A DNA stretch of 61,050 nucleotides, the filler included, from Squatina squatina (Eukaryota): the NCBI GenBank assembly GCA_031763465.1. It is 4 parts of 4 records of this genome, joined end to end, with 100 filler letters (N's around TTAATTAATTAA, not from the genome) between each part and the next. Parts side by side here need not be neighbours in the genome. Positions count along the whole stretch, not along the records: positions 47,544 to 61,050 come from JARFOE010000192.1; 3 more parts are not named here. The stretch is one strand, 5' to 3'. The translations under genes were made by a program, and so were the position numbers. Of the stretch, positions 6,871-61,050 are shown piece by piece. The notes beneath the pieces were generated by a model that was given only the letters and a program-made list of their open reading frames with translations, was not told the origin of the DNA and made no database searches. Position 1 is the stretch's first letter. Each line of letters begins with the position of its first letter.

Positions 6871-7167
6871 ACGCAAATGACTGAAGTTCTCAGATTCATT
6901 GTGAAACTATAATATGAACAAGTTACACAAGTGATGTTGACTGCAATTCACGTGTACCTTCAGTGTTGAGAGTCAGCAGCACAGTCCCCGACTGCAATGT
7001 AAATTAAATGCCAGAGATTAATAATGTACCATTGCTAACTATCCCTGCTGTGCCATTTAGTGCTAATCAACGGCCAGTGTTAGAATCAATCACAAGGATC
7101 AAAATGCAAAATGTACGAGTTACAGTTGCGGGTAGGATGGATTATGAACGATTTTGTTCTCTTGCAG

Positions 7168-8683
7168 CAACGCACGGACGGATTTGTTGAAAGTGAAGCT
7201 CGATTGGCTTCAATGTCACTTCACGTGGGGCCCACAGAAAGAAATCCTTGACCTGGACGACATGAAGCAAAAATTGCAAGATACAATACAAGCTGGTTTG
7301 AAATATCAGGCCATGTCTTACAACCACCTCGCTTTTGTAAACTGTCTGCAAGGCACCTGTGAAGAGGCAATTCAAAACTTAAAGGAAGCTGAAAAGATTC
7401 TGAGNNNNNNNNNNNNNNNNNNNNNNNNNNNNNNNNNNNNNNNNNNNNNNNNNNNNNNNNNNNNNNNNNNNNNNNNNNNNNNNNNNNNNNNNNNNNNNNN
7501 NNNNNNNNNNNNNNNNNNNNNNNNNNNNNNNNNNNNNNNNNNNNNNNNNNNNNNNNNNNNNNNNNNNNNNNNNNNNNNNNNNNNNNNNNNNNNNNNNNNN
7601 NNNNNNNNNNNNNNNNNNNNNNNNNNNNNNNNNNNNNNNNNNNNNNNNNNNNNNNNNNNNNNNNNNNNNNNNNNNNNNNNNNNNNNNNNNNNNNNNNNNN
7701 NNNNNNNNNNNNNNNNNNNNNNNNNNNNNNNNNNNNNNNNNNNNNNNNNNNNNNNNNNNNNNNNNNNNNNNNNNNNNNNNNNNNNNNNNNNNNNNNNNNN
7801 NNNNNNNNNNNNNNNNNNNNNNNNNNNNNNNNNNNNNNNNNNNNNNNNNNNNNNNNNNNNNNNNNNNNNNNNNNNNNNNNNNNNNNNNNNNNNNNNNNNN
7901 NNNNNNNNNNNNNNNNNNNNNNNNNNNNNNNNNNNNNNNNNNNNNNNNNNNNNNNNNNNNNNNNNNNNNNNNNNNNNNNNNNNNNNNNNNNNNNNNNNNN
8001 NNNNNNNNNNNNNNNNNNNNNNNNNNNNNNNNNNNNNNNNNNNNNNNNNNNNNNNNNNNNNNNNNNNNNNNNNNNNNNNNNNNNNNNNNNNNNNNNNNNN
8101 NNNNNNNNNNNNNNNNNNNNNNNNNNNNNNNNNNNNNNNNNNNNNNNNNNNNNNNNNNNNNNNNNNCCGCCCATTGACATCTATTAAGCCACAACTGGAT
8201 TTTGCAGGTATCTGTTCATTAAATGGAGAATATCACAAAGCAGAAAAGATCTACAGAAATCTCATGAAATTGGAAGATATTCGTCCAGAAAATAAGCAGG
8301 CGATATGTTTAGCGGCAGGGTTATTTGAACTACACCAGAAGAAATCTGAATCAAATGCCATCACCCATTTTCTGGATGGAGTGAAAGTGAAATATGACTC
8401 AAGAGAACGGACAAGGTGTTACGAAAACTTGGAGAAGATAGCAGAGAGACTTCTTCGCAGGAATCCACGAGACAGCAAGGCCCTTGGTGTTCTTGGGTTC
8501 CTGCACCAGCTGGATGGGAAGAAGAGCAAAGCAATTGAGTGCTTTGAAAAGGCCTTGGAGTTTGATTGTGACAATGAAGAATATCGACGTGCTCTCACTG
8601 AATTACACATCTCTATCTCGGCGAATGCTGACTTTCCCACCAAAACCAAACACATCCTCGAAGGATGCATTAATACTCTCTGA
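7168..8683 (+). CDS. Interferon-induced protein with tetratricopeptide repeats (IFIT5/IFIT1-like), main coding exon; middle is N gap 7405-8166
   Basis: Acceptor ttttgttctcttgcAG (7166-7167) in phase 2, as expected for the IFIT ATGAG mini-exon 1. LQCHFTW, YNHLAFV, AIQNLKEAE; C-terminal TPRs ALGVLGFLHQLDG..AIECFEKALEFD.DNEEY; TGA at 8681-8683. The two halves could belong to different tandem paralogs. Confidence 0.9.
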
Positions 8684-9330: not shown

Positions 9331-9701
9331 TTTTCTGATGAAGTTTGAATCTGCAGAAGGGCAGGGCAGTTGAGGGTCTTCACGTTGTATTTGATAGCTG
9401 CTTTCCTCAGAAGGCTTCCTGCTCGCCATACTGCTTACGGTGGAGTTGGGCAGATCCTCTACAAGAGTGAGGGGCCGCAGCAGAGCACCACAAACACAAA
9501 TATTAGCTACGAGGCCTCCGAGGATGAGTATCGCCCCACGCCAAGAGTACCGTTCAATCAGCAGCTGAACCACTGGGGCTAAAACAAAAGTCCCAATTCC
9601 ACTTCCTGACATGGCCAACCCATAAGCCATAGCCTTCCTTTTACAGAAGTACTTCCCCACAATAGCTATGGCTGGAGAATAAGCTAGAGCATATCCACAG
9701 C
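9331..9701 (-). CDS. SLC16A12: Monocarboxylate transporter 12, large internal exon (partial)
   Basis: Acceptor ctgttgcAG, then [78 protein letters not shown] (MCT TM5-6); adjacent to IFIT as in human. Confidence 0.88.
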
Positions 9702-10289
9702 CTGCAACAGAGAACACAAGTTTTTTAAAATTACGATACACATTATTTCATCCGGTTGCTTTCATTTTCAGCTTTCTACCAATGGTAGTCCACAGCATAA
9801 CTGCTTTCAGCTAGGATCGCAGGCAAATGAGTTGACTCTTCCATGAGTGGCTTGTTCAACGCTTCATTCTGCACATCCAATGCAAAGCGTGTGCATCACC
9901 ATTGCATATTTTAGCATCTTACCGCCACATTGACATTTTCTGCAATGGCTATTTTAAGATTAGATTTGCTATTGTTGCATTCCTGATCTTGGAATTCTAG
10001 TTTTAAATGATTTGCTTCCGAAATTTCACCAGCCTGAAGGAAAAGATCAATCCATTCTAATGTTGCACGTGCTAGGCAGATATTGGCGAGCTGGTGTTCA
10101 ACGCAGGAGGTTATAAAATGTGCTCTCTTCGCCCTGGGTACAGTAAGGTGTTTCCACAGCAACAGGAAAACACCACAGACCCTCTACCTTTTACAGTTCA
10201 TTTATTGGCCATCCTTAACTTTACAGTTATATGTTACAAAATTACATAATCAAACGGATGCTATGGTTTTTCATTTGGATAGCTGAACT

Positions 10290-15874: not shown

Positions 15875-15886
15875 TTAATTAATTAA
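15875..15886. other. Artificial scaffold linker TTAATTAATTAA within N44 padding
   Basis: Identical palindromic all-frame-stop spacer at 15875, 28946 and 47488. Confidence 0.95.
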
Positions 15887-28945: not shown

Positions 28946-28957
28946 TTAATTAATTAA
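28946..28957. other. Artificial scaffold linker
   Basis: TTAATTAATTAA in N44 padding. Confidence 0.95.
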
Positions 28958-47487: not shown

Positions 47488-47499
47488 TTAATTAATTAA
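47488..47499. other. Artificial scaffold linker
   Basis: TTAATTAATTAA in N44 padding. Confidence 0.95.
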
Positions 47500-48146
47500 N
47501 NNNNNNNNNNNNNNNNNNNNNNNNNNNNNNNNNNNNNNNNNNNATGTTTGAGCTGAGATGAGGAGTGTTTTTGAGCTGTTTGACCACATGGGACATCATA
47601 GCTGAGTCGTGATCCTGTGTTCATTTGATCTCTACCCATACCCACTTTACAGCAGGAAGTCAACCAGAAGTGGAAACCCTGACTGTTTTATATCCCTCTA
47701 AGCTGGAGATCATAGAGCTGTTTCAACAGCGGTCAGTTCAGCTGATCAGCACAGACTTGAAACTGAAACTGGGACCTTCCGGGTCTGTGTGGCTCAATAC
47801 CACATCACATTTGCCATCAGTAGAAATTTCAATTCACTCTCTAACATGGGTACTGTTGTAAAACAAAACAGAACATCATATGTGTATAGGTGTGGAAAAA
47901 TTAGCATACTGGCTGTATAACCATATTGGTATTTTCTTTGATAATGTAACATTTTAATACATTGCTTATTTCCACAATTGTATGTGCCTCAGGCACTTTG
48001 TTCAAATGCTGCTCCTTGCCTTGTGATGATCGGGCTACTTGCCAGTATGAGCCTACTTTATTCAAGCTGTTTTTAGTAAATGGTTTAGTGTCACATAAGC
48101 TGTAAAGTAAGTATGGACACAAACCTTTGATTCAAATCACTTATGC

Positions 48147-48740
48147 TTATTCATTTAGTGCAGCTCTTTTTTTCTGTAGGACTTTCATGAGATCTGACAT
48201 AAGGTCTGGCTGGTCCGAAGATCCACCTCCTCCAGGTCTAGATTGGGAGGTCAGTGTGCTATTCCCACTCCTCTGTGGCACGACGGGCCTTTTCACAGCA
48301 TTGATGGTTGGGTTCGAAAGAGCTGGTGGAGGAGGAGGTGGCGGTGGCGGTCCTCCGGAATTGCTGTTGAGGCAAGGGGGAGGAGGCGGCAGAAAATCAG
48401 GAGGTGGTTCTGGAAAATTCTCTGGATCTGGAGGAGGTGGAGGTAAATCTGAAAAGTGAACATTTGATTTTGGTTGATTACTTGCACCTGAATTTTTCCG
48501 TTTGATTAAGGTAGGAGGTGGTGCTGCAGAAGATGTAGCAGATGGAAAATGTCGGGCAGGTGGTGGAGGAGGACCTGAAAGGGTCTTTGGCTTGGATGGC
48601 TCTGCTGGAATTGGAGGAGGGGGAGGTTCAAAGGATGGAGGGGGAGGTGGTAGCTCCTCTTCTTCAAAATGCATGGGTCCTTGATATTCAAATTTAGTAG
48701 GTGGTGGTGGGAGGATGGTATCAGTGTCAGTCGTCTTCTC
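48147..48740 (-). CDS. APBB1IP: APBB1IP/RIAM proline-rich terminal exon
   Basis: Acceptor tttcaattctaAG, phase 0. Multiple LPPPP/FPEPPP motifs; ends DLMSDLMKVLQKKR (human DFMSDLMKALQKKR); TAA. Confidence 0.85.
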   Translation of the reverse strand, partial: EKTTDTDTILPPPPTKFEYQGPMHFEEEELPPPPPSFEPPPPPIPAEPSKPKTLSGPPPPPARHFPSATSSAAPPPTLIKRKNSGASNQPKSNVHFSDLPPPPPDPENFPEPPPDFLPPPPPCLNSNSGGPPPPPPPPPALSNPTINAVKRPVVPQRSGNSTLTSQSRPGGGGSSDQPDLMSDLMKVLQKKRAALNE

Positions 48741-49744
48741 CTTAGAATTGAAAATAAATGTTATTATATGGGTCATAGAGAAAGTGAACATTCATGTAGC
48801 ACACATTGAACCTTTCTCGTTTTCTTAATTTTCTTCTTAAACATTCCAGCTACTGGTCATATTTTCCTGGTTCAGTTAACCAGGGGGCCGAAATTTCCCA
48901 CAACTCTGTATTATATCCTGGGACTAGGTTTGTTATCTGGATTAAAGATGGTAGCACCTTACAGTGGCATTTAAAACAACTTATTAAGACGGAGTCTTAT
49001 GGCAATACAACAAAGTGATGGATTCTGTTTCAATTCCCTGCTCTGCTAAGTTCCTGACCACTAGTGTACAGAGAGCTGGGAGCAACTTTAGGGTTTGCTG
49101 AGGAGCAGGATGCATGCCCCATCCATTCCAGACACGGGGTAGGCATGGGTTAGAGGGGGACCAGCAACAAGAGAAAATCTGGGGAGAAGGAAGAGAATAT
49201 ATTGTTGTCAGAGAGTATATATGAGGCAAAACTGGGGACGGTAACACCTGTGAGGCAGGAGTTCCTGCGCCAGGTGCAGAAGTCCCGCCCCGCATGCTAA
49301 ATCGGGCTCAGCGCCCCCGAGAGTAAGTGGAGCGTTGCGCTCCACTTCCTCTTGGGGGCAGGACTAAGGCGCTCAGCACCTCACATTTTCCAGCGCTATN
49401 NNNNNNNNNNNNNNNNNNNNNNNNNNNNNNNNNNNNNNNNNNNNNNNNNNNNNNNNNNNNNNNNNNNNNNNNNNNNNNNNNNNNNNNNNNNNNNNNNNNT
49501 GAGCTACTGGCCTGAGAGACAGCATTATCAGACATTTGATGTTTCATTCCAAGAAGCCTATAAAGATCTACATCAGTCTGAGAACTGTTACCCACTCTGG
49601 TCTCTGCAGTAAATGAGGAAGCTTTCAGCAAAGAAGGAAGAAACCTTAACATATGGAAATAGTTACTTGCCAGGGGAGTCGCGTAATCAGGGTTATACTC
49701 TGACTCTGTCCAGTGAATAGCGTTTATAAAATTTCACATCTTAC

Positions 49745-49904
49745 CAATCTGTAGCTCTGGATTGTTTTCGTACAGGCACCACTCCACGTTGCAGTCACAG
49801 TGAGACTTCTCAAATAAATTGTCCAAGATTTCACGCACAGTCTGCCTTTCATCAACCATCAGTGTTTTACTGCTGCTATCATTCATGAGGACCTTGACAA
49901 CCAG
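49745..49904 (-). CDS. APBB1IP: APBB1IP Ras-association domain exon
   Basis: tttcAG|LVVKVLMNDSSSKTLMVDERQTVREILDNLFEKSHCDCNVEWCLYENNPELQI|GTAAG, 160 nt. Confidence 0.88.
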
Positions 49905-50002
49905 CTGAAAGGTAGAAACAGGGATTATGATTGAGCACAATTGAATGACCCGACCCCTTATTCTGGCCCATAAGCATTTAGATATCAAAATACAAATAGG
50001 TA

Positions 50003-50192
50003 CAACTAGGCTTGTATTCCCTGGAATTTAGAAGATTAAGGGGTGATTTGATTCCAAGATACTTCAAGGGTAGATAGAGAGAAACTATTTCCATTGGTTG
50101 GGGAGTCTAGGACTAGGGGACATAGTATAAATATTAGAACCAGCTCTTTCAGGAGTGAAGTTAAGAAACACTTGTATATGCAAAGGGTGATA
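50003..50192 (+). mobile_element. CR1 ORF2 3' fragment
   Basis: LGLYSLEFRRLRGDLI...LFPLVGESRTRGHS. Confidence 0.75.
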
Positions 50193-50197
50193 GAATC

Positions 50198-50529
50198 AGC
50201 CATGGCTCAAATGGCAGCCCTCTTGCCTCTGAGTCACAAAGTTGTGGGTTCCAGTTCCACTCTAGAGACCTGAGCACAGAAATCTAGGCTGACACTTCAG
50301 TGCAATACTGAGGCAGTGTTGCACTGTTGGAGGTGATGTCTTTTGGATGAGACGTTAAACTGAAGCTTTGTCCGCTTTAAAAGGCGGATGCAAAAGATCG
50401 CATGGCACTATTGTGAAGACGAGCGGGGGAGTTATTCCTGGTATCCTGGCCAACATTTAAATCTCAACCAACACCACAAAAACAGCTTATCTGGTCATGA
50501 CCACACTGCTGTTTGTGGGATCTTGCTGT
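50198..50529 (+). mobile_element. Deu-domain SINE with tRNA-like head (SacSINE1-like)
   Basis: tggctcaaatgg...ctctgagtca...gggttccagt head, then aggctgacacttcagtgca.tactgagg...cttttggatgagacgttaaactga Deu core. Confidence 0.75.
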
Positions 50530-51028
50530 NNNNNNNNNNNNNNNNNNNNNNNNNNNNNNNNNNNNNNNNNNNNNNNNNNNNNNNNNNNNNNNNNNNNNNN
50601 NNNNNNNNNNNNNNNNNNNNNNNNNNNNNGCTCTCCATCAGTAAGAGGCATCACAATTGATCTTTGTCCTGTCCAAATGCAAATCTTCTGCCTGGGGTTA
50701 CTGAATAACAATCCGGAGCAAAATCCTGGTAGAAACCACCCCCCACCCGAATTACTAACCCCATATGTGGAGTTGAGCCACAGAAAGTTGGTACATTTAC
50801 ATACTCAGCCACCAGGGGAGGTGTAAACTGATTTAAAAACAGTCTTTGTTAATGGAAATAACCAGGAATTGATATGTTTCAAACATTTTGTGATGTAATA
50901 ACTATCAACAAGGCAAGCTACATTTATAAAAAAAAACTTTTTTCCAAATGCATGAAATTAGTAATGTGTTTTATTTGATCTCAATTGTTTTTTTGACTGC
51001 AGATTTAACAATATTCTTTCTTTTCCAG

Positions 51029-51260
51029 GTATTTCACTACCTGAGTATTGCAATTCTGACTTTCTTTATACTGGAACTAATTGGTAAATTATATGCCTTC
51101 CGCTTGGAATTTTTCTGGCACAAGTTTGAAGTCCTGGATGGAGTCATTGTTATTGTATCTTTCATTCTTGATATTGTCTACATTTCCCGGGAAGATGCTT
51201 TTGACGGTGTGGGCTTACTTATACTACTAAGACTGTGGCGAGTGGCAAGAATAATAAATG
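51029..51260 (+). CDS. HVCN1: Voltage-gated proton channel (Hv1-like) exon encoding S2-S4
   Basis: ttttccAG|[50 protein letters not shown]...[16 protein letters not shown](G)|GT, with the Hv signature RxWRxxR. Ortholog versus paralog is unresolved. Confidence 0.8.
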
Positions 51261-52599
51261 GTACAGTTCATAATTGAACATCTTTAAATGGGATCATACA
51301 TGTTGGGGAAAGAAGGGAGATGGATTCATTTTGTCTCAACATCTTTCACTGGGTGAAATCAGCTGCTAGGAGAATGCATTTTATGAAACGGGATGTCATT
51401 TATTGACTACTGAACAATTCTCTGCTTCACAAAATGTAATTTTTGCATTATATCTAAACAAAAATAAAAATGAAACAGAAATTCAGGTGAGTGCATATGC
51501 CAACATGCATATTCACAGAGTATGCACAGACATTATGCTAAAATGGGCTTACAGAAACAAAAAAATTCAAATCTGTTCAATCACAAGAAATGAGGAGGTC
51601 CCATTCTTGCGGTTGGAAGAACAATTATAGTTTGGAGAAATATAGAAGTCCAGTTTTGCTTTTGCCCTTACCAATAATAACCATTGTCTTATCATTAACA
51701 AAAAGAAAGCTGCAGCCTATCATAATCAAATGTCAATTTAACACCTAAATCATTGATCATGTGGGCTCCAACGTGGCCAGGTTGATTATTTTGAAGATTT
51801 TATCTGGTTACTTAATGATAATTGAAGAATTTCTACTACATCAACAGAATTGGTTTGGACCTCTTTCACACAATATTACAGTGGTTATGAAGACCAAATC
51901 ACCCTAAAGAAAACCCTAGCACAGGACGCAAGAGATGCTTCATACTGTCATCGTCACCTCCTTATATTGTTGGCTGTAAGACGATTTATATTACTGCCAA
52001 TTTGAGTAAAACACGTTTTTGAAGATAACACTAAACCAAATAAGTTCTCTGGGATGATATCATGTCACTTATTTTCCAGCTATGAATCTTCATTATTTGA
52101 GTTATTGAATTACAAATATGATAAAGCTCTCAACAAGCAATTCCAGCAACTAGAATCTGAGTTAAATCTGACTTACGCACTTCTTTCCAGCTCCATGTGC
52201 TAGCATAGAGTCCAATATTATTTAAATAAAAATATTTATTAGCATTATTTGAAATTAACCACAACTCACCTTTGAATGTTTTCTGACCTTCAAAACAATT
52301 TCAAATTTGTTTTAGTGAGCACGAATTTTATTGTATTCAACATCCAGTGGCTTGAGACTGAGGGTTGACAATCTAAGTGCCTATCACTTTTCACCGGGGA
52401 CTGGGTGTTTCCTGTGTTAACGGAAGTTTGCTGAATATTCAATGAAAACCTTTATTTAAATTGGTAGGCCAGAAACCTCCAAATGCCACCTGCTGGATGA
52501 GGTATAGTACTAACTCCAACTGTTGCCTTTTAATTAAGTCACCTTTGTTTCCTGAACAGATTTACTTTCTTTTCTTGCTTGTTAATTCATTTTACAGTC

Positions 52600-53325
52600 T
52601 TCCTGGGCGAGAAACTTGGCCGGTAGCGTCCGTTTTTTGGGTGCTACGAGTGCCAGTAGTATTCCAAAATGGCGTCTGCGGCGCATGGTCACACTTCTCG
52701 TGCAAAGCACACCAGACACTATCTTGGTAAAGGTGCTAATGCAGTTAATGTCCGCCAGAAATATGCAGAGCAGGCAGGTCATGACGTCACACTGATTTGA
52801 AGCCAGCGCTTCCATTTTGGAGCTCCAAGCTCCAGTCAACACCCTTTCTTGAGCTCACACAGCTGAACACATGTTACGCAGCAGGAAGGACCCCCATGAG
52901 TACTATTTAAAGGGATCACCAACTACTTACAGGTTAGCTACTGGTTGATTCCTTCTGGCTGTGGCTACAATTTTACACTGGGGCTTTCGATGGTTGTTTC
53001 AAGTTTTAAAAGTCTACAGGGAGTGGTGTGACAGGTGCTGAGTACTTTTTGCCAACTTCAAGGCTTCTGCACAAACCAGTTCCTCTCAGACATACGTGCA
53101 GTAGTAGGCATTCCCCATGCAATAGAGCATGACTGGGAGAATGAACAGAGGCCAGGCAGAGCAGGACAAGCTTCTAGAAGAGGGTGGAGGAGGAGGGCTC
53201 TCATAGGAGGCCATATTCGCCCAGGGTGTCCAGAGAGCAATTCTCCTACCTGAACCTTAGCGACGCCAATGTTTGAGATGTCTGCAGTTCAAAAGGATGT
53301 TGTTCTGAAATCTACCACCAGCTGC
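52600..53325 (+). mobile_element. Harbinger transposon end plus decayed HARBI1-type nuclease N-terminus
   Basis: RRPYSPRVSREQFSYLNLS...QCLRCLQF across frameshifts at about 53205-53325; CpG-rich subterminal region with CAAAATGGCG. Confidence 0.65.
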
Positions 53326-53699
53326 NNNNNNNNNNNNNNNNNNNNNNNNNNNNNNNNNNNNNNNNNNNNNNNNNNNNNNNNNNNNNNNNNNNNNNNNNNN
53401 NNNNNNNNNNNNNNNNNNNNNNNNNAAGAACCTGGGCAGTTCTTGGTTGTTTGTGTTCCTGCTGTATTTTGTAAAGAAACTTTGGTGGGCCATCTGGTCC
53501 CGTGATCTTTGAGGCCAACATTAAATTACTGCCTGCTGCTCGCTCTGTCTGGTATACACAAGGGTGGAGAGATAATCTGCCTATTGAAGCTGATCTGTTG
53601 TTCACTGCTGCTTTATGGTTGCACGAGGAGTGCACTCACACTGTACAGTAGGAGCAGAATGAAGAAATTTGCATCATTTCTTAATGCATCTTAATATAG

Positions 53700-54000
53700 G
53701 TCAGCCACAAGTTCAAGCTTCTGGGAACTCTCTTGAGCTAGACTGATATTTCAGTGCAGTAGTAAGTGGAGTTCTGCAAAGGGCTTTCTTTCAGATGTGA
53801 TGTTAAACTGAGCCCTGCCTGCCTTTACAAGTGGATGTAACAAGCCCATGGCAATATTTAAAGATGTAGAGAGATTTCACCTTGTGTTTCGGCCAGCATT
53901 CAACCCTCAACCAACAGCACCAAAACTGATTGAGAGGTCGGTGCTTTGGGACATCCTTAGGTCAGCAAAAGCTGTTGTAGAAATGCATGTCCTTTCTATT
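53700..54000 (+). mobile_element. Diverged Deu-domain SINE
   Basis: agactgatatttcagtgcagta...ctttcagatgtgatgttaaactgag...ggccagcattcaaccctcaaccaac, homologous to 50198. Confidence 0.6.
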
Positions 54001-54197
54001 TGAATCTAACCCTTATTGTTTCGAGCTGTTCCAATTATAAATGCTGCTGCAATCCTGTCCCAGAATCTTCAGGAAAAGCAGTTGGGCCCGTGAGTCAGCG
54101 ATTGGTGTTCAAGCGGTGGGGAGATGGGCACTGCACAGTGTCGATGAGGTAGCAGCTCTCCGTGCATACTGACTGCTAAACTTTCATAATATTTCAG

Positions 54198-54399
54198 GAG
54201 ACAACGAGGTGCCGTCTGAGGATGCATTGATCTTGCAGCTCCAGTTGTCGAAGGGACAAGAGAAATTTGTGGAAATGTTGAAAAGTCAACAGAAAGCTAT
54301 CGGCGATTTACAGCAGAGGCTCACAGAGCAACAGGCCACGCTGATAAACCAGCAAAGAGAAATTCTGGGGCAGCAGAGGAAGATGTTTGAACAGATGGA
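54198..54399 (+). CDS. Uncharacterised gene, coiled-coil exon (3' end in gap)
   Basis: atttcAG acceptor; DNEVPSEDALILQLQLSKGQEKFVEMLKSQQKAIGDLQQRLTEQQATLINQQREILGQQRKMFEQM shows a heptad, Gln-rich pattern. Confidence 0.7.
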
Positions 54400-54540
54400 N
54401 NNNNNNNNNNNNNNNNNNNNNNNNNNNNNNNNNNNNNNNNNNNNNNNNNNNNNNNNNNNNNNNNNNNNNNNNNNNNNNNNNNNNNNNNNNNNNNNNNNNC
54501 TTTCAATTACGGCTAATTATTCATTTTGTCTTCAATCCAG

Positions 54541-54607
54541 GACAAAGATGAGTGTCTGGAGTCAGCAGATCTTTGTGGCAATCGGATTAAATGTCTTAAC
54601 ACTCCAG
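54541..54607 (+). CDS. Uncharacterised gene, calcium-binding EGF-like exon DKDECLESADLCGNRIKCLNTP(G); not in the ORF track
   Basis: ttcaatccAG acceptor; D-x-D-E-C start; GTGGGC donor; phase 1 joins 54706 to complete CLNTPGGFRC. Confidence 0.8.
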
Positions 54608-54705
54608 GTGGGCACTTTATAATTTCTGTTAGTCCCAAAGTGAGAAGTGCCAGCCCTGACGACAGAGTACTTCAGTCAGTCTCTCTCTCCTGTTCTTTTT
54701 AACAG

Positions 54706-56234
54706 GTGGATTCAGGTGCCTGGGTGTTGCTGAAAGGGACGTGGCCTCGGGGCTTTGTGGGCACGGCTACTTCTTCAACAAAGAGATGCAGGAATGCCAG
54801 GCCTGTTCGCTCTGTGATGAAGGCACAGTGGCTCTCCGGTGCTCCCTGCGCAGTGATACCGTTTGCACCCAGTCGCCCGAAAACCGGCTCTCGGAATCAT
54901 GGTCAACGAACACCGACGACCCGTCGCTTAGACTCGGGCAGGGCCCCGTTCACCAGGGCTTGAACCTGCTCTTAAAGGGAAAGCCCCAGTCCGACCTGGC
55001 GACCAACGAAGACGGCAGGTTGGTCTTCAGGCAGCACGGACTGATCTGGGCCGATTACAACTTTGCCGTCAGGCACAACTGCAGGAACTTCCTCCAGCTT
55101 TCGTTGAGGCTGAATGAAGAGGAGGAGGAGGGTCGGGACCTCAGTGGCGTCCGGGTCGAGCAGCCCGAGGGGAAGTACTACCAGAGCGGCAGCATGAGCG
55201 GCTCGGCCGAGGTGGAGCCCAGCCATATGCTCCACCTCTTCGCGAAAAGCCCCAATCAGTTCTGTAACCAAAGCAGCGACCTCAACTTCTACCACCTCCA
55301 CAACCCATTCAGCTTCTTCTGGCTGTCTCACGACACAGGGGCGGTGGCAATGAGCGCGCACATGGCAAGCTCTGTCCACTACCAGACCAACTACCGGCCT
55401 GTCTTCAAGGTCATTTCCATCTCCGATCCCTACATGATCAGCTTGTTCCACGACGGCAGGGCTGTGAGATTCACTGAGCAAGGGGTCGTAAAGTTTGTGT
55501 ACCACCAGGCGCTGTACGCTATGGGCCATACGTGCGTTCGTGAAGGCTTCACATTACTTTCCTACATTAACAGGAACGGGACGAACAAAGAGTTAACTCA
55601 AGTCTATAAATCTGGTGTCAACTATCGGGATACCTCGATTTCTGCCTCTGGAGCGGCCATGGTAAATGGCGGAGACACGATCAGCTTTCAGATCCACTCT
55701 CCTCCACAGTGCAGTGTGCGTTACTTTGGAGACACATCTGGGATCAGTGTTTTCAGCCTAATTTGGATTCCATCGGCGGTTTCCTCGGCCCTGTCGCTCA
55801 CTGTTTCGGGATCTGCGTTACCAACAGGGGCTGTGAGGAATAAGTTTCTGAGTTTCCAGGAGGTTTTGCCAGTGGCAGAACAGAGCCAGGTCGCGCTGGT
55901 GACGTCTGGGCAGTTTGCAGACAAGTATGTCCTGTTCCGTGACAGTGGAGTGGCCAGCCTTGCGTTCAACATCAAACTGATCCACTCTTGTGACTTCGTC
56001 AAAGTTACCCTGAACCGGCTGCAGAGCGACCACACCCAGCCGTCTGCTGTCGCGTGCCAAATTGGGGGTCAGATGCCTGCAGGTAGCCAGTGGACAAGCG
56101 TCGGTCTACGTGCTTCGTTTGATGTCCGGAACGGCACCATGGCAGCCATCTCCCTGGACTGTGTACGAGGGCGGATTAATCAGATTGCACATGGCAGCGG
56201 GACCAATCTCTCAATTTTATGGGTTTCATCCTGA
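54706..56234 (+). CDS. Uncharacterised gene, terminal exon: TNFR cysteine-rich domain plus three tandem C1q/TNF-like beta domains
   Basis: ttttaacAG acceptor; 1529-nt open exon ending TGA; CGHGYFF..ECQACSLC..RCSLRSDTVC; threefold internal repeat; AATAAA at 56291-56296. Confidence 0.85.
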
Positions 56235-56290
56235 ATCATACTGTTGAATGGAAGAGTGCCTTCAGCACTTATGTGAAGGTACATTAAGCC

Positions 56291-56296
56291 AATAAA
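56291..56296 (+). terminator. Polyadenylation signal of the uncharacterised gene
   Basis: AATAAA 57 nt after the stop codon. Confidence 0.45.
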
Positions 56297-57919
56297 GCAT
56301 CACGGCAGTTACAACTGGTTTCAGATAATTGACTCCTATTACAGCTGATGAAGGTTTCAAAGTTCCTTACTGTGATGTTTGGTGGGGGGTGGGCAGGGGA
56401 GAACCACAGTTGAAAGCAATGGATGCCAAGATGAATGTTGTTCCCACACTGCAGTGTAGGTAACAGGTGGATATTAAGCCAGACAAATGGAAAGAAACTG
56501 ATGGCAAAAGAGAATCCAAGTTGACTATGCGTGTGCTGCAAGATTTCAAATATACATTGTAACTGCTGCTTTACAGAATATTGTGTCAAGGATCCAAAAT
56601 TGTGACCCAGCAAACATTTTTGCAGTACAGATCTCACCGCGTATAAAATGTGTCTTCTGTATAGTGGCCTTTTGCTCTGTTATTTCCAGCTCCGCTCTGA
56701 CCTGCAGCTTTATTTAAACTACAGTTAGTGCTTAGTACAAGCTGTAACCCACACGCCACTTATTAGGAGGGCTTAAATATCCAAAAGGTAATTGAACATT
56801 AACCAATTGTTATTTACTTATTTACTTACTCAATGTTTGTTCTTGAATTCAGTGCACCTAATGAGGTGCGAACTAATGAGTAACTCCAGCTGCTTCTGCC
56901 CGAAATAAAAGGAGCACTAAAGACACTATAACTGTCAACTTTGAAATTGATGTGAATGCAAATAGATAATGGTTATTGCTTTGGCCGATATAAGCGATTA
57001 CCCATTTTAAGTGGTGGTGACTGTACCTCAATTGTTTCTCCACCTTTACGGTGGGAAGCGTCCTCTGGGGTGTGCTGGGGCTCACTGCTGCTGGGAAATA
57101 TTTACAGTTTCTACCTCTTCAAATGCAGGCAATGAGAACAATTGACTACAGGCTAGACACAATTGTGAACAATATAAATGAGGTTTCATCCCCTGCCCTG
57201 AGCTCTGTTGAAAACATAACTACAGCTGTTCCATGGGGAATTTTTTGTTTGACTTTTGCTTCCTGGTGTGACGATGCACATTGCCTTTTGTTTGGCCCTT
57301 GGCACCGCACCAGCTGTTAAATGTGAAAATTAAATTCAGTTGGCACTGCAAACTGATCACTAACATGGCGGAGAAAAACTGCTCTGGTTGTTATGTGTAG
57401 TGTAATCATAATTGTGTTCTTTTTGAATGCACTTATGATGTTGCAACTTGTAGAGACCAGAGCAATTCTTGCCCCAAGTGTGCGCACAAACTGCGTGACA
57501 ACGCATACAGGTTCTCGCTTTTTTATTCCATTCATTAATGGAGTTATATCAAGAGGAGCAACCTCCCCTCCCCCCACAAAAAAAGCACAATCTGAGTCAT
57601 TCATGCAAACTATGAAGTTATGGTTAGACAGAAAAATGATAAAAGTTATCTAATCTAAATTACATGTAATGATAGCAGGGTGTGGTTATAAGACTATGAT
57701 CTAATTAAAATGTGATGGTAGCAAGAGCACTGTCCTACTTCTCATAACATTTCTATTTTTTTTCTACCTTTAGATAGTCCAAGAGATTGAAAAGTGTAAG
57801 AAAGAACTTTCATTTCCATNNNNNNNNNNNNNNNNNNNNNNNNNNNNNNNNNNNNNNNNNNNNNNNNNNNNNNNNNNNNNNNNNNNNNNNNNNNNNNNNN
57901 NNNNNNNNNNNNNNNNNNN

Positions 57920-58045
57920 CAGTAAATGGGAAGTAGGGGAGGTGACCAAAGGTGTGGTCAAAGAAGTAAGTTTTGAGGAGCTTTTGGAAGGAGGGGAGAG
58001 AGGTGTTGAGATGTAGCCGATTAATGAGGGAGTTCCAGGTTGCAG
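57920..58045 (-). mobile_element. L2 LINE ORF2 C-terminal fragment
   Basis: WNSL..RLHLNTSLPSFQKLLKTYFFDHTF. Confidence 0.7.
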
Positions 58046-58639
58046 TTATGTGGTGATGAAGGTAGGTGAATAAGAACAGCCTATAGAATGAATGTATGTA
58101 CCACAAATAATAACTGATACCTTGGGACAACTTCAAGGAAGCAGTGTAATCTTGGCGTTCAGGAGAACTGAGCTTCATACCATGCAATGTCACCGGAGCC
58201 CACAGTTAAATAAATGCCTGTGTAATTGTTCCCAGGTTCTATTATTCTCTATATACACAGTGACCAAACAATCAGTGATTAACTCAGAAATGCGTCTGTA
58301 TCAATGCTCACACTCTCTATTGCTGGCACACTGAAATCATTTAATCTCATAGAGAGATAGGGAGGAACTTATTTGTCTTGCTTGCTTCTCTGTACAGTGG
58401 AGATCAATCACAAGTTCCCTCACATGGGAGACAGCTCTTTAATTGGATTCCATCTGTAACATCTGAAGTATTTTTAGCAACAAAGGATGACAAGACCAAA
58501 CCGAGCCATATTTCTACTAAAAAACCCTGATGTGAAATTCAGATGGTTTGAGACTGCAGCATTCCTAGTCAGTGAAGCACATTAACCCTTTGAGTACTGA
58601 ATGAACTTCCAGTTTATGAAACACAGATATGTTTTATCA

Positions 58640-58778
58640 TCCTCCCCTTCTTAAAAAGCCTGCTCTTGACCCATTTATTATCTCCAAAAACAGACCCCAT
58701 CTCCAACCTGCCCTCCTTACTAAAGTTCTGGAATACATTGCCACCATCCAACTCCACGTCCACCTCTCCCATCATTCA
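58640..58778 (+). mobile_element. L2 LINE RT N-terminal fragment
   Basis: PLLKKPALDP....NRP......LTKVLE.....QL (decayed NYRPIS..SKILE motif). Confidence 0.65.
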
Positions 58779-60134
58779 AAGTTCAGACTCCTTGGGGTAG
58801 ATCTTGTGCAATAGTGTAAAACTATTGTACTGAACTGAAGTATCAGCCTAGGTTATGNNNNNNNNNNNNNNNNNNNNNNNNNNNNNNNNNNNNNNNNNNN
58901 NNNNNNNNNNNNNNNNNNNNNNNNNNNNNNNNNNNNNNNNNNNNNNNNNNNNNNNNNGTGCTCACAGGGCGTGTGGGTTAGGAAATTGTGGGCCCTGGTT
59001 CTTAATTTTCTGTTCATTTCAATTATTCAATAGAAAATCAGGACTTCCCAAACTGTGCTCCCTGCGTGTGCTGCTCCTTGGCAGGGGATCAGCCTTGATA
59101 TGTTTTCTTGGAGTTCTTAAAGTAATTTAATTAAAATAACAGGAGTCAGATTGTGCCTTACAATGACATGATGACTGTCTTTCTTTCAGAACACTTGGAA
59201 CTTTGGTTAAAGCATTACAAGCTTGATTGTGACTTTGGGTCTAACCTCTTGTGCCACACCATCTGCAAATTACTATTTTTTATGTGTAGAATATGAAACA
59301 CGCAATATCCATTTCCCAACCTCTCACCTGCATTTCCTGAAAAATTAAAGGCAGACAAAGCATTCAACACTCAAGTTCTTTATTACAGGTAATACTGTAC
59401 CTGTAGCTGGCTGGATATACAACAAGCATCTTAACAGCATAGACACAGGACAGTGTTTACTATTCAGATTCCAACACATAGTTCCATATTGGCGGGGATG
59501 CTTCAAAATATGCTTCAAAATATACATCAGATGCAAGAAAGTNNNNNNNNNNNNNNNNNNNNNNNNNNNNNNNNNNNNNNNNNNNNNNNNNNNNNNNNNN
59601 NNNNNNNNNNNNNNNNNNNNNNNNNNNNNNNNNNNNNNNNNNACTGCACAATAAGATTTTTTTTTACTTCATTTTTTTTTGATTGACTCTGTAGATCCTG
59701 CTAAATACATGGAACGCACATCCTAGCCTGTTAAATGGACATGACTAAGACAGTTACACAGTTTGTTCAGTCAATGGTCTTCTCCAACCCAACAAGTACT
59801 AATTCACATTCAGTCTGAATAAGATCAAGCTGCAAGTTTAAATGGGATTAGCAACTGGAAGTGTTTTAGCACAATGCAACGTATGAGGTCAGTGTGAACA
59901 ATGTAAAATTTCACAGATGTTAGTGCAACAGCGGTAGAATCAGATTATAAAGTGCTCCAAGTCCCTTTTAGTGAATGGTCGAGCCGTTGAACATGCAGCA
60001 GCATGTCCAAATGGTATCTTACTCTACTGTGTCGTTTCACACTATGCTTCTGAATTCCTCTCATTTATAGGAGACATTTATTTGAATGTTGGCAGTAATG
60101 CTAGAATAATTGCACATGTGCAAGATAACAAGGT

Positions 60135-60443
60135 AATTACAAAAAAGGAAGGCCATTCAAGCCAGCTTAACGAATTCACCCAGAGAGATCCTAACATTCC
60201 ACCATTGTACATCCAATTGTTTCTTAAATGATTCCAGGGATTTTGCTTCCACTCGTCCATCTGGAAATTTATTCCACACGTTGACCACTCTTTCTGTGAA
60301 GAACTTTCTGATATTAATCCTAAAATGACCTTTTACAAGAATAAACTCGTGTGCTATGGTTCTATTCCACAGTTTAATTTAAAGTAATAATCTGAGTTAA
60401 CTTTTCCTGCACCCTTAACAATCCTGTATACCTCTATAAGGTC
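60135..60443 (-). mobile_element. Diverged CR1 3' region
   Basis: DLIEVYRIVKG on minus; ttccacacgttgaccactctttctgtgaagaac; aggaaggccattcaagcc. Confidence 0.6.
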
Positions 60444-60784
60444 AGGCGTCCTTGTATGTGTTATAGTGTACATGTGCAGAGCTGTGCTTTTCTCCACTTG
60501 AGCAATGTAGGCAGGTAATGTAACTGGGACTGTCACCTCTGGTTGGATGTATCCCTGGAGGCTTCATCACATGACCTCCTGCCTCCAACCACCCCACTCA
60601 ATCAAACAGCCTTTTTTCCCCATCTCTAATATTTTGTTACTAATAAACAAAAAAGTGTTCAAAGATAATGCAAAGAGACACACACTGCTTTTTAATGCCA
60701 TGATTTTCCTCCTGGGTTGCTTGTAACGGTGTCCAGGAGATTAATTTTTAATTCCTGGTGACCGCAAGACAGTATTGAAGGTTT

Positions 60785-60890
60785 GGTGACTGTAAATACA
60801 ACAGTGGCTGTCCACTTGCACCATAAAGAAAAAAGCAAGAAAGACTTGCATTTCACGACCACCAGACGTCTCAAAGTGCTTTACAACCAT
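60785..60890 (-). mobile_element. Deu-SINE/L2-type 3' tail
   Basis: aagaaagacttgcattt...gacgtctcaaagtgctttaca is the reverse of the tail at 13190-13246. Confidence 0.5.
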
Positions 60891-61050
60891 GCTCGGAAAT
60901 GGTGCAGTGTAAGTAGAGCAGAAATGCAATTTTGAAGTGGCAAGTATCTAAAAAGTACCAGAGCAACATCTAGCGGTTTAATAATCAGGCATTATACTAT
61001 CTTCCTTTACATTTTTTACAGTGGCTATTTCCAGAGATTTTAGCATCTCT

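Follow-up and report, generated by a model that had tools for sequence, protein, structure and literature searches.

Tandem C1q domains within one secreted polypeptide have been described in both mussels and mammals: mussel HcC1qDC6 consists of a signal peptide and three C1q domains only (PMC5519582), and mammalian CTRP4 (C1QTNF4) carries two C1q domains in tandem (PMC9952994). Proteins of the CTRP/adiponectin type are built from a variable N-terminus, a stalk and a C-terminal trimeric head (PMC9952994). TNF receptors bind in the grooves between protomers of their ligands, with the DE loop forming much of the FasL/DcR3 interface (PMC7084274), and a disulfide joins the CD and EF loops of classical TNF ligands (PMC8484739). 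NELL2, the name of which is relevant here, contains LamG, a coiled coil, six EGF and five VWC domains (PMC7083938). Single-chain TNF/C1q trimers, in which three jelly rolls are joined in one chain (4zch, 5hkj/5hzf, 5kca, 4dou), are laboratory fusions. Multimerins combine a coiled coil, EGF and gC1q, and the CD-EF disulfide is absent from some TNF ligands. The TNF ligand family is further marked by a type II membrane anchor and by release through cleavage. Here we describe a gene in a stretch of 61,050 nucleotides from Squatina squatina (GenBank assembly GCA_031763465.1), referred to below as the window, which by sequence identity is the shark copy of a chordate gene labelled nell3. The C-terminal head of its product is predicted to hold three TNF/C1q-fold domains packed as a trimer within a single chain, and stands behind a coiled coil and two TNFR cysteine-rich repeats separated by an EGF module.

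The head is encoded by the last exon, which lies in a plus-strand frame of 524 codons (54660-56234, stop to stop), the coding part of which begins at the acceptor at 54706. The three segments of this head (D1, D2 and D3) were compared pairwise by hhalign using an alignment of 136 rows, with 15 column-shuffled controls per pair. Probabilities (scores in brackets) were 94.2 (49.0) for D1/D2, 96.1 (57.6) for D1/D3 and 94.9 (51.4) for D2/D3, and the best shuffled controls scored 14.6, 18.2 and 21.5, respectively; a shallower alignment (A1) gave probabilities of 90.7, 60.7 and, for D2/D3, 2.9. Judged against these controls, the threefold repeat is beyond chance. An AlphaFold2 model of the last exon built from 114 sequences (predicted local distance difference test, pLDDT, 85.6; predicted template-modelling score, pTM, 0.84) contains three beta-sandwiches, and the TNFR repeat of the window has pLDDT of ~55-60 in the same model. 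The six best Foldseek matches are all engineered single-chain trimers, of APRIL-BAFF-BAFF (E 1.4e-19), C1q, adiponectin and Cbln1, and the same six head the list for the full-length Heterodontus protein (pLDDT 74.3, pTM 0.61), in the model of which no transmembrane or cytoplasmic part is seen. Comparison by VIA-align with 48,161 chains placed 4zch_B at the top (Z 37.5, root-mean-square deviation, rmsd, 3.1 Å, 399 residues aligned), followed by 5hzf (Z 33.0; 3.1, 381), 5kca (32.0; 3.4, 383) and 4dou (31.7; 3.2, 375); the row after the engineered trimers drops to Z 16.0. Since Z values of 31.7-37.5 extend over 375-399 residues, the predicted packing, beyond the domain fold, matches that of the canonical trimer. 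The interdomain linkers are short and of identical length in 136/136 rows, and the three repeats are predicted to pack as a single-chain pseudo-trimer.

Domains cut from the multi-domain model, rather than folded separately, gave their best single-domain matches among the TNF ligands CD40L, EDA, APRIL, BAFF, RANKL and Eiger (Z 15-16.6, rmsd 2.0-2.9). In the predicted model D2 matches CD40L at Z 16.6 (rmsd 2.3, 134 aligned) and D3 matches RANKL at Z 15.3 (rmsd 2.3, 137 aligned); D1 alone reached only Z 11.7 (rmsd 3.1, 122 aligned, OX40L) and is covered by the trimer matches. Further values were 16.1 for EDA, 16.0 for APRIL, 14.7 for C1QL3 and 14.5 for C1q, at 8-17% identity. At the sequence level, neither the whole protein nor any single domain or orthologue scanned matched Pfam TNF (PF00229) at E<=10, Pfam C1q (PF00386) gave no match in the window protein or the orthologues scanned, and PDB sequence searches at E<=10 returned no TNF ligand or C1q chain among the matches listed (9 of 9, 27 of 27 and the best 60 of 75). 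ESM features scored D2 at 0.92 to a cluster in which 63% of members carry C1q and 11% TNF, which is a lead only, and all scores of the whole protein in the ESM Atlas were below 0.8. On the predicted structure, the nell3 head is a member of the TNF/C1q superfamily by fold and of neither family by sequence; we consider the TNF/C1q fold of the modelled head very nearly certain. The sequence-only reading of this locus had proposed a threefold repeat of C1q/TNF jelly rolls forming a single-chain pseudo-trimer. The repeat withstood the shuffled controls, and the AlphaFold and Foldseek comparison agreed with the pseudo-trimer; the domain type holds at the level of the superfamily, with a slight lean of the single domains to TNF ligands over C1q.

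The nell3 head resembles the engineered trimers in having three jelly rolls per chain with the same predicted packing, but it is natural, only 10-14% identical to them, and made of three long-diverged domains joined by fixed short linkers. Like HcC1qDC6 and CTRP4, nell3 is a secreted-type protein whose single chain holds C1q/TNF-fold domains in tandem; their domains are recognisable as C1q by sequence, whereas its head matches neither Pfam C1q nor TNF, and, unlike bivalve multi-C1q proteins and CTRP4, it carries a coiled coil and a TNFR-EGF-TNFR module ahead of the head. With CTRP/adiponectin, C1q and EMILIN/multimerin proteins it shares a variable N-terminus, a stalk and a C-terminal trimer-type head, but Pfam scans of nell3 contain no collagen or EMI domain, and its head is complete within one chain, so that an oligomer would carry several heads, versus one in CTRP/C1q-type proteins. 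Triple-C1q chains are already known in mussels, and the nell3 design is a variation on a known kind. Because of mussel HcC1qDC6, with its tandem C1q domains, and of predicted viral triple heads, a one-chain triple head has precedent. The viral models come from BFVD, in which a mimivirus protein (A0A1X9VNK7, TMq 0.67) and a phage C1q-domain protein (A0A6J5LW36, 0.58) match the whole head at 10% identity; these are probably independent one-chain triples.

In full-length orthologues the order of parts is a signal-like start, a Cys-rich linker, a Gln-layered coiled coil, a TNFR repeat, a partial Ca-binding EGF module, a second TNFR repeat and the three repeats of ~150 residues. A hydrophobic N-terminal stretch, used as a hydropathy proxy for a signal peptide, is present in 18/18 full-length proteins; the ~210 residues that follow contain paired cysteines and have low pLDDT in the Heterodontus model, and the segment preceding the coiled coil is highly conserved (0.87). 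The coiled coil consists of seven heptads with Leu, Ile, Met or Val at position a and Gln at six of the seven d positions (string QLQQQQQ), as seen in 13 of the 14 jawed-vertebrate rows (5-7 heptads); helices are modelled at orthologue residues 249-311 and 318-343. Among six amphioxus proteins the pattern is clear in one (P0129, six Gln) and short or absent in the rest. The first TNFR repeat is an eight-Cys repeat in orthologues and falls inside the 100-N gap of the window. The second has its cysteine codons at 54756, 54795, 54804, 54813, 54840 and 54864 (C-x12-C-x2-C-x2-C-x8-C-x7-C) and is the sole Pfam match in the last exon (TNFR_c6, 30.3 bits vs a cut-off of 29.4); together the two repeats of the closest orthologue reach 45.8 bits, and the best PDB sequence match is NGFR/p75 (E 6.8e-5).

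Between the two repeats, the Ca-binding consensus of the EGF module is almost invariant over the 136 rows (D 135, D/N 136, E 136, N 135, F/Y 134), but only four cysteines stand in normal spacing and the C4-x-C5 step of a six-Cys EGF is absent. The residue two after C4 is Gly in 123/136 rows, the next cysteine opens the second TNFR repeat, and the first loop of that repeat occupies the place of the EGF C5-C6 loop. Pfam EGF_CA falls under its cut-off in most vertebrate orthologues, and in one protein (P0248) its match at 409-461 overlaps the second TNFR repeat. The TNFR-EGF-TNFR module is well predicted in the full-length model (pLDDT mostly 72-93). The TNFR superfamily layout, tandem repeats followed by transmembrane and signalling parts or a decoy tail, is not found here, as the repeats are split by the EGF module and a beta-sandwich head continues to the C-terminus. 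The EGF module is conserved at 0.87, the two TNFR repeats at 0.70 and 0.68, and the head at 0.69-0.80. The tether between the final cysteine of the TNFR repeats and the opening strand of the head measures only ~10 residues, and its length is unchanged across 125 of 135 rows.

When the 54 domains of 18 proteins were placed in one tree, the D1 domains of all 18 clustered together (100/99), as did their D2 domains (100/100), and thus the triplication predates the amphioxus-vertebrate split. With midpoint rooting D3 requires two changes, and the labels D1-D3 are jointly at the minimum of two, details being unsure owing to long amphioxus branches. Loops were named from DSSP order and the TNF convention, and disulfides inferred from invariant cysteine pairs. 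Each domain has such a pair in its CD and GH loops (136, 136 and 135 of 136 rows for D1, D2 and D3), not in CD and EF as in classical TNF ligands. Column conservation among 120 jawed vertebrates averages 0.82 in the apex loops (CD, EF, GH) vs 0.59 in the DE loops. Length is constant in all rows for the CD loops in D1 and D3 and for the EF loop in D2; it varies for the DE loops in D1 and D3, and the D2 DE loop holds an N-glycan sequon in 119 of the 120 rows. Conservation is fairly high in the AA' loops of two domains (0.75 in D2 and 0.79 in D3).

The last exon is 90% identical to the 'uncharacterized protein nell3' of Heterodontus francisci (938 residues) and 78-86% identical to the proteins of four other sharks and rays. 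A first protein search gave 224 matches, 120 of them listed at 51-69% identity; among the matches listed are birds, turtles, crocodilians, squamates, platypus, frogs, Amia and teleosts. Their database names are nell3 and si:ch211-37e10.2, the chicken gene is named NELL3, and a second teleost gene is named si:ch211-252f13.5. Every database source labels the nell3 gene uncharacterised or hypothetical. The sequence-only reading had taken the protein to be unnamed and without a mammalian gene of like architecture; it does carry names, though uncharacterised, and is present in platypus and in seven marsupial species (proteins of 739-1054 residues). Vertebrates apparently have one or two copies, with 62-79% identity from sharks to platypus, and the platypus protein is 78-79% identical to those of birds and dunnart. 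A HMMER scan of 1.84 billion representatives returned 26 matches, of which the ten identified first are six amphioxus clusters and one each from the tunicate Styela, lamprey, a teleost and a source without a name; amphioxus has at least six divergent clusters. A profile of 14 amphioxus proteins and one tunicate protein gave 22 matches and no full-length non-chordate relative, a weak negative, as this word-limited search missed several of its own members; no full-length mollusc relative was found among the named matches of the HMMER and amphioxus/tunicate profile searches. With platypus as query, no placental mammal is named in the best 120 of 386 matches (down to 58% identity). The gene was apparently lost in placental mammals, as far as the best 120 of 386 matches shown and their assignable rows tell.

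Searches of the main texts of openly available papers gave no description of nell3, si:ch211-37e10.2 or si:ch211-252f13.5, nor of any vertebrate one-chain triple head or triple head fused to TNFR repeats; the accessible parts of PMC11788884 and of a preprint (bioRxiv 10.64898/2026.09.23.753883) do not mention the gene. The proteins of the second teleost gene, si:ch211-252f13.5 (P0121 and P0123), cluster with nell3 of teleosts for D2 (98/90) and, weakly, for D3, and for D1 they fall outside the other jawed vertebrates.

The reading that we favour, with a probability of about 0.5, is that nell3 encodes a secreted oligomeric ligand, in which the TNFR-EGF-TNFR rod would serve as the stalk and the conserved apex of the head would bind an endogenous partner. 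A signal peptide would export the product, and the Leu/Gln-layered coiled coil, probably aided by the N-terminal cysteines, would bundle several chains. The TNFR-EGF-TNFR module would form a Ca-stiffened rod, a stalk equivalent to the collagen of C1q and CTRPs, and each head would use its conserved apex loops, stapled by disulfides, to bind an endogenous partner, either a receptor or a matrix component, so that the bundle of heads could cluster this partner. The fusion of three different protomers would give one fixed heterotrimer-like surface, with no need for chain sorting. A stalk-and-head, apex-binding ligand is favoured because the apex is conserved, the DE loops are variable or sequon-bearing, and the tether is short and nearly constant. 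Several observations weigh against it. The single domains score slightly higher against TNF ligands (Z 15-16.6) than against C1q proteins (14.3-14.7), and TNF ligands bind in grooves, not at the apex. The conservation columns are non-independent, and conservation of the apex may serve folding. The D2 DE turn, being a sequon, is likewise conserved (0.95), and a glycan at this site is assumed. In the shark rows hydropathy over a 19-residue window rises to as much as 2.07 where D2 meets D3, a stretch modelled as beta-strands, and the evidence for the signal peptide is a hydropathy proxy confined to orthologues.

The presence of a ligand-type fold and receptor-type repeats in one chain, kept from amphioxus to marsupials, raises the possibility of a self-docking cytokine, in which the TNFR repeats bind the groove of their own head, in cis or between chains, to give a masked ligand or a lattice. 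The single-domain matches to TNF ligands, the fairly conserved AA' loops of D2 and D3 and the binding of TNFR repeats in inter-protomer grooves (PMC7084274) agree with such docking. Against it, the DE loops are the least conserved and are either variable in length or sequon-bearing, and no R-x-K/R-R site occurs in the seven full-length proteins checked. Moreover, the tether of ~10 residues ties the C-terminus of the TNFR repeats to the base of the head, an orientation that would be the reverse of the canonical TNFR-ligand pose. Self-docking is therefore judged unlikely, and we are equally doubtful of the wider proposal of an overlooked chordate-wide TNF/C1q branch in which a natural single-chain hetero-pseudotrimer and TNFR repeats bind each other in one secreted chain. 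If true, the protein would be a fusion of ligand and receptor that masks itself or assembles with itself, retained over >500 million years and lost from the placental lineage. Another use of the repeats would be that of a soluble decoy receptor like OPG or DcR3, capturing an outside TNF-family ligand while the head serves only for targeting or anchoring. The two repeats are jointly above the Pfam cut-off, the model is free of a transmembrane or cytoplasmic part, and the coiled coil would make the protein multivalent; OPG, DcR3 and p75/NGFR share TNFR repeats with nell3, but in nell3 these are split by EGF rather than adjacent, are fused to a ligand-type fold, and are no more conserved than the head and less so than the EGF module, which leaves a decoy quite improbable.

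The heads could instead bind microbial surfaces or glycans in innate pattern recognition, as does mussel HcC1qDC6, whose three tandem C1q domains bind bacteria, lipopolysaccharide and peptidoglycan (PMC5519582). The at least six divergent amphioxus clusters fit this idea, and so, as a lead only, does the ESM score of D2; but a fixed self partner fits better than microbes, because the vertebrate copies are apparently few, and conserved, with the apex the most conserved part. No mollusc is represented at full length among the named matches. We give pattern recognition a small chance. It is scarcely credible, finally, that nell3 is a true third member of the NELL family acting through Robo or ROS1. 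Besides the names nell3/NELL3, it has in common with NELL1 and NELL2 a coiled coil, one EGF-like module and probable secretion, and the family profile matches NELL2 EGF chains at E 3e-16. This match is limited to profile positions 154-235, however, and an adhesion G-protein-coupled receptor scores better; no LamG or VWC Pfam match occurs in the 19 proteins scanned, and nell3 has one partial EGF instead of six, with TNFR repeats and a TNF/C1q head in place of the missing domains. NELL membership is thus largely refuted by the architecture, and the name misleads because the defining domains of NELL are absent. The gene is real, and it is named but uncharacterised, and misnamed.

By its predicted fold, nell3 gives zebrafish, Xenopus, chicken and opossum a hidden TNF/C1q superfamily member, with a head invisible to Pfam and a name pointing to the wrong family. 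Its head would be a natural vertebrate counterpart, with very short linkers, of the single-chain trimers of protein engineers. Intermediate in score between TNF and C1q and traceable to amphioxus, it bears on the split of the two families and on the first use of TNFR repeats. Strong conservation and then an apparent loss from placental mammals suggest that its function was given up in that lineage.

The layout of the gene in the window is given in Table 1. Splice acceptors (AG) lie at 54196-97, 54539-40 and 54704-05 and a donor (GT) at 54608-09; the tryptophan codons of the repeats are at 55320, 55764 and 56220 (148 and 152 residues apart), and AATAAA occurs at 56291, beyond the stop. Contigs were obtained from sequencing runs of two related organisms (X1 and X2, shares 0.05-0.06), which are uninformative on tissue or expression level. 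X1 and X2 contigs begin at the acceptor of the 54198 exon, with a loose end that reads as an upstream exon, and loose ends on either side of the gap read as more of the coiled coil and as the closing part of the first TNFR repeat; none of these contigs bridges the gap between the coiled-coil and EGF exons. The three exons are colinear with residues 184-250, 363-386 and 386-891 of the Amia protein, and by this colinearity the exons at 54198, 54541 and 54706 are parts of one gene. Some 180-230 N-terminal residues fall outside the window, in which tblastn located no N-terminal exon. The three spliceable exons, cysteine spacing and tryptophan positions of the sequence-only reading are as it gave them, its six-Cys TNFR repeat clears the Pfam cut-off, and its coiled-coil exon does belong to the gene. 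Its order of coiled coil, EGF, TNFR and repeats is right but incomplete, another TNFR repeat lying in the gap, where it had counted one, and the N-terminus beyond the window; its EGF module keeps the Ca consensus with four normally spaced cysteines only, and the signal peptide that it advised seeking has a counterpart in the signal-like N-termini of orthologues.

Table 1. Parts of the nell3 gene in the window (positions count along the whole window)
Feature	Position	Strand	Evidence
Exon: conserved head segment and start of coiled coil (a = Leu/Ile/Met, d = Gln)	54198..54399, continuing into N-gap	+	94% identity to Heterodontus nell3 228-295
100-N gap hiding ~112 codons: rest of coiled coil and first TNFR repeat	54400..54499	.	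Orthologue residues 251-362 unmatched in window
Exon (67 nt): first part of Ca-binding EGF, D-x-D-E-C...C...C-x-N	54541..54607	+	Ca-consensus residues in 130-136/136 rows
98-nt GT..AG intron	54608..54705	+	Skipped by one X2 contig and by a loose end in X1
Second TNFR cysteine-rich repeat	54756..54866	+	Pfam PF00020 E 5.5e-7
Predicted TNF/C1q-fold domain 1 (D1), invariant Cys pair	54882..55328	+	Structure matches; Cys pair in 136/136 rows
Predicted TNF/C1q-fold domain 2 (D2), most conserved domain, N-glycan sequon in DE loop	55329..55772	+	Z 16.6 to CD40L
Predicted TNF/C1q-fold domain 3 (D3) and TGA stop	55773..56234	+	Z 15.3 to RANKL; Cys pair in 135/136 rows

Short unnamed fragments (P0139-P0147; 62-229 residues) look degenerate, six of them being closest to amniote members at 47-62% and one (P0142) giving a 36% match to the dunnart protein; these fragments may be pseudogene remnants. 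In the amphioxus paralogue P0132 a kringle domain (Pfam E 8.9e-23) precedes the coiled coil, and the N-terminal part is thus exchangeable.

The sequence TTAATTAATTAA, with 44 N on either side, occurs in three copies in the window (15875-15886, 28946-28957 and 47488-47499). As these spacers look like artificial joins of four pieces, the treatment was restricted to 47544-61050, taken as the gene's own piece, and a syntenic link to the genes near the start of the window (actin, hydroxylase, TPR) was rejected. On that piece, 3 kb upstream of nell3, an exon at 50999-51274 (+) has a Pfam Ion_trans match (E 8.7e-7) and an R-x-W-R-x-x-R helix, and we take it to resemble the voltage sensor of an Hv1/HVCN1-type proton channel, possibly a paralogue. 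At 48150-50027 (-) there is an RA-domain exon (Pfam RA_2, E 4e-14) with a proline-rich last exon, presumably of an APBB1IP/RIAM-like gene. A different piece holds frames the translations of which we take to resemble actin (679-999, -), a sterol hydroxylase (2252-2953, -), an IFIT-like TPR protein (7148-8680, +) and a monocarboxylate transporter (9331-9747, -).

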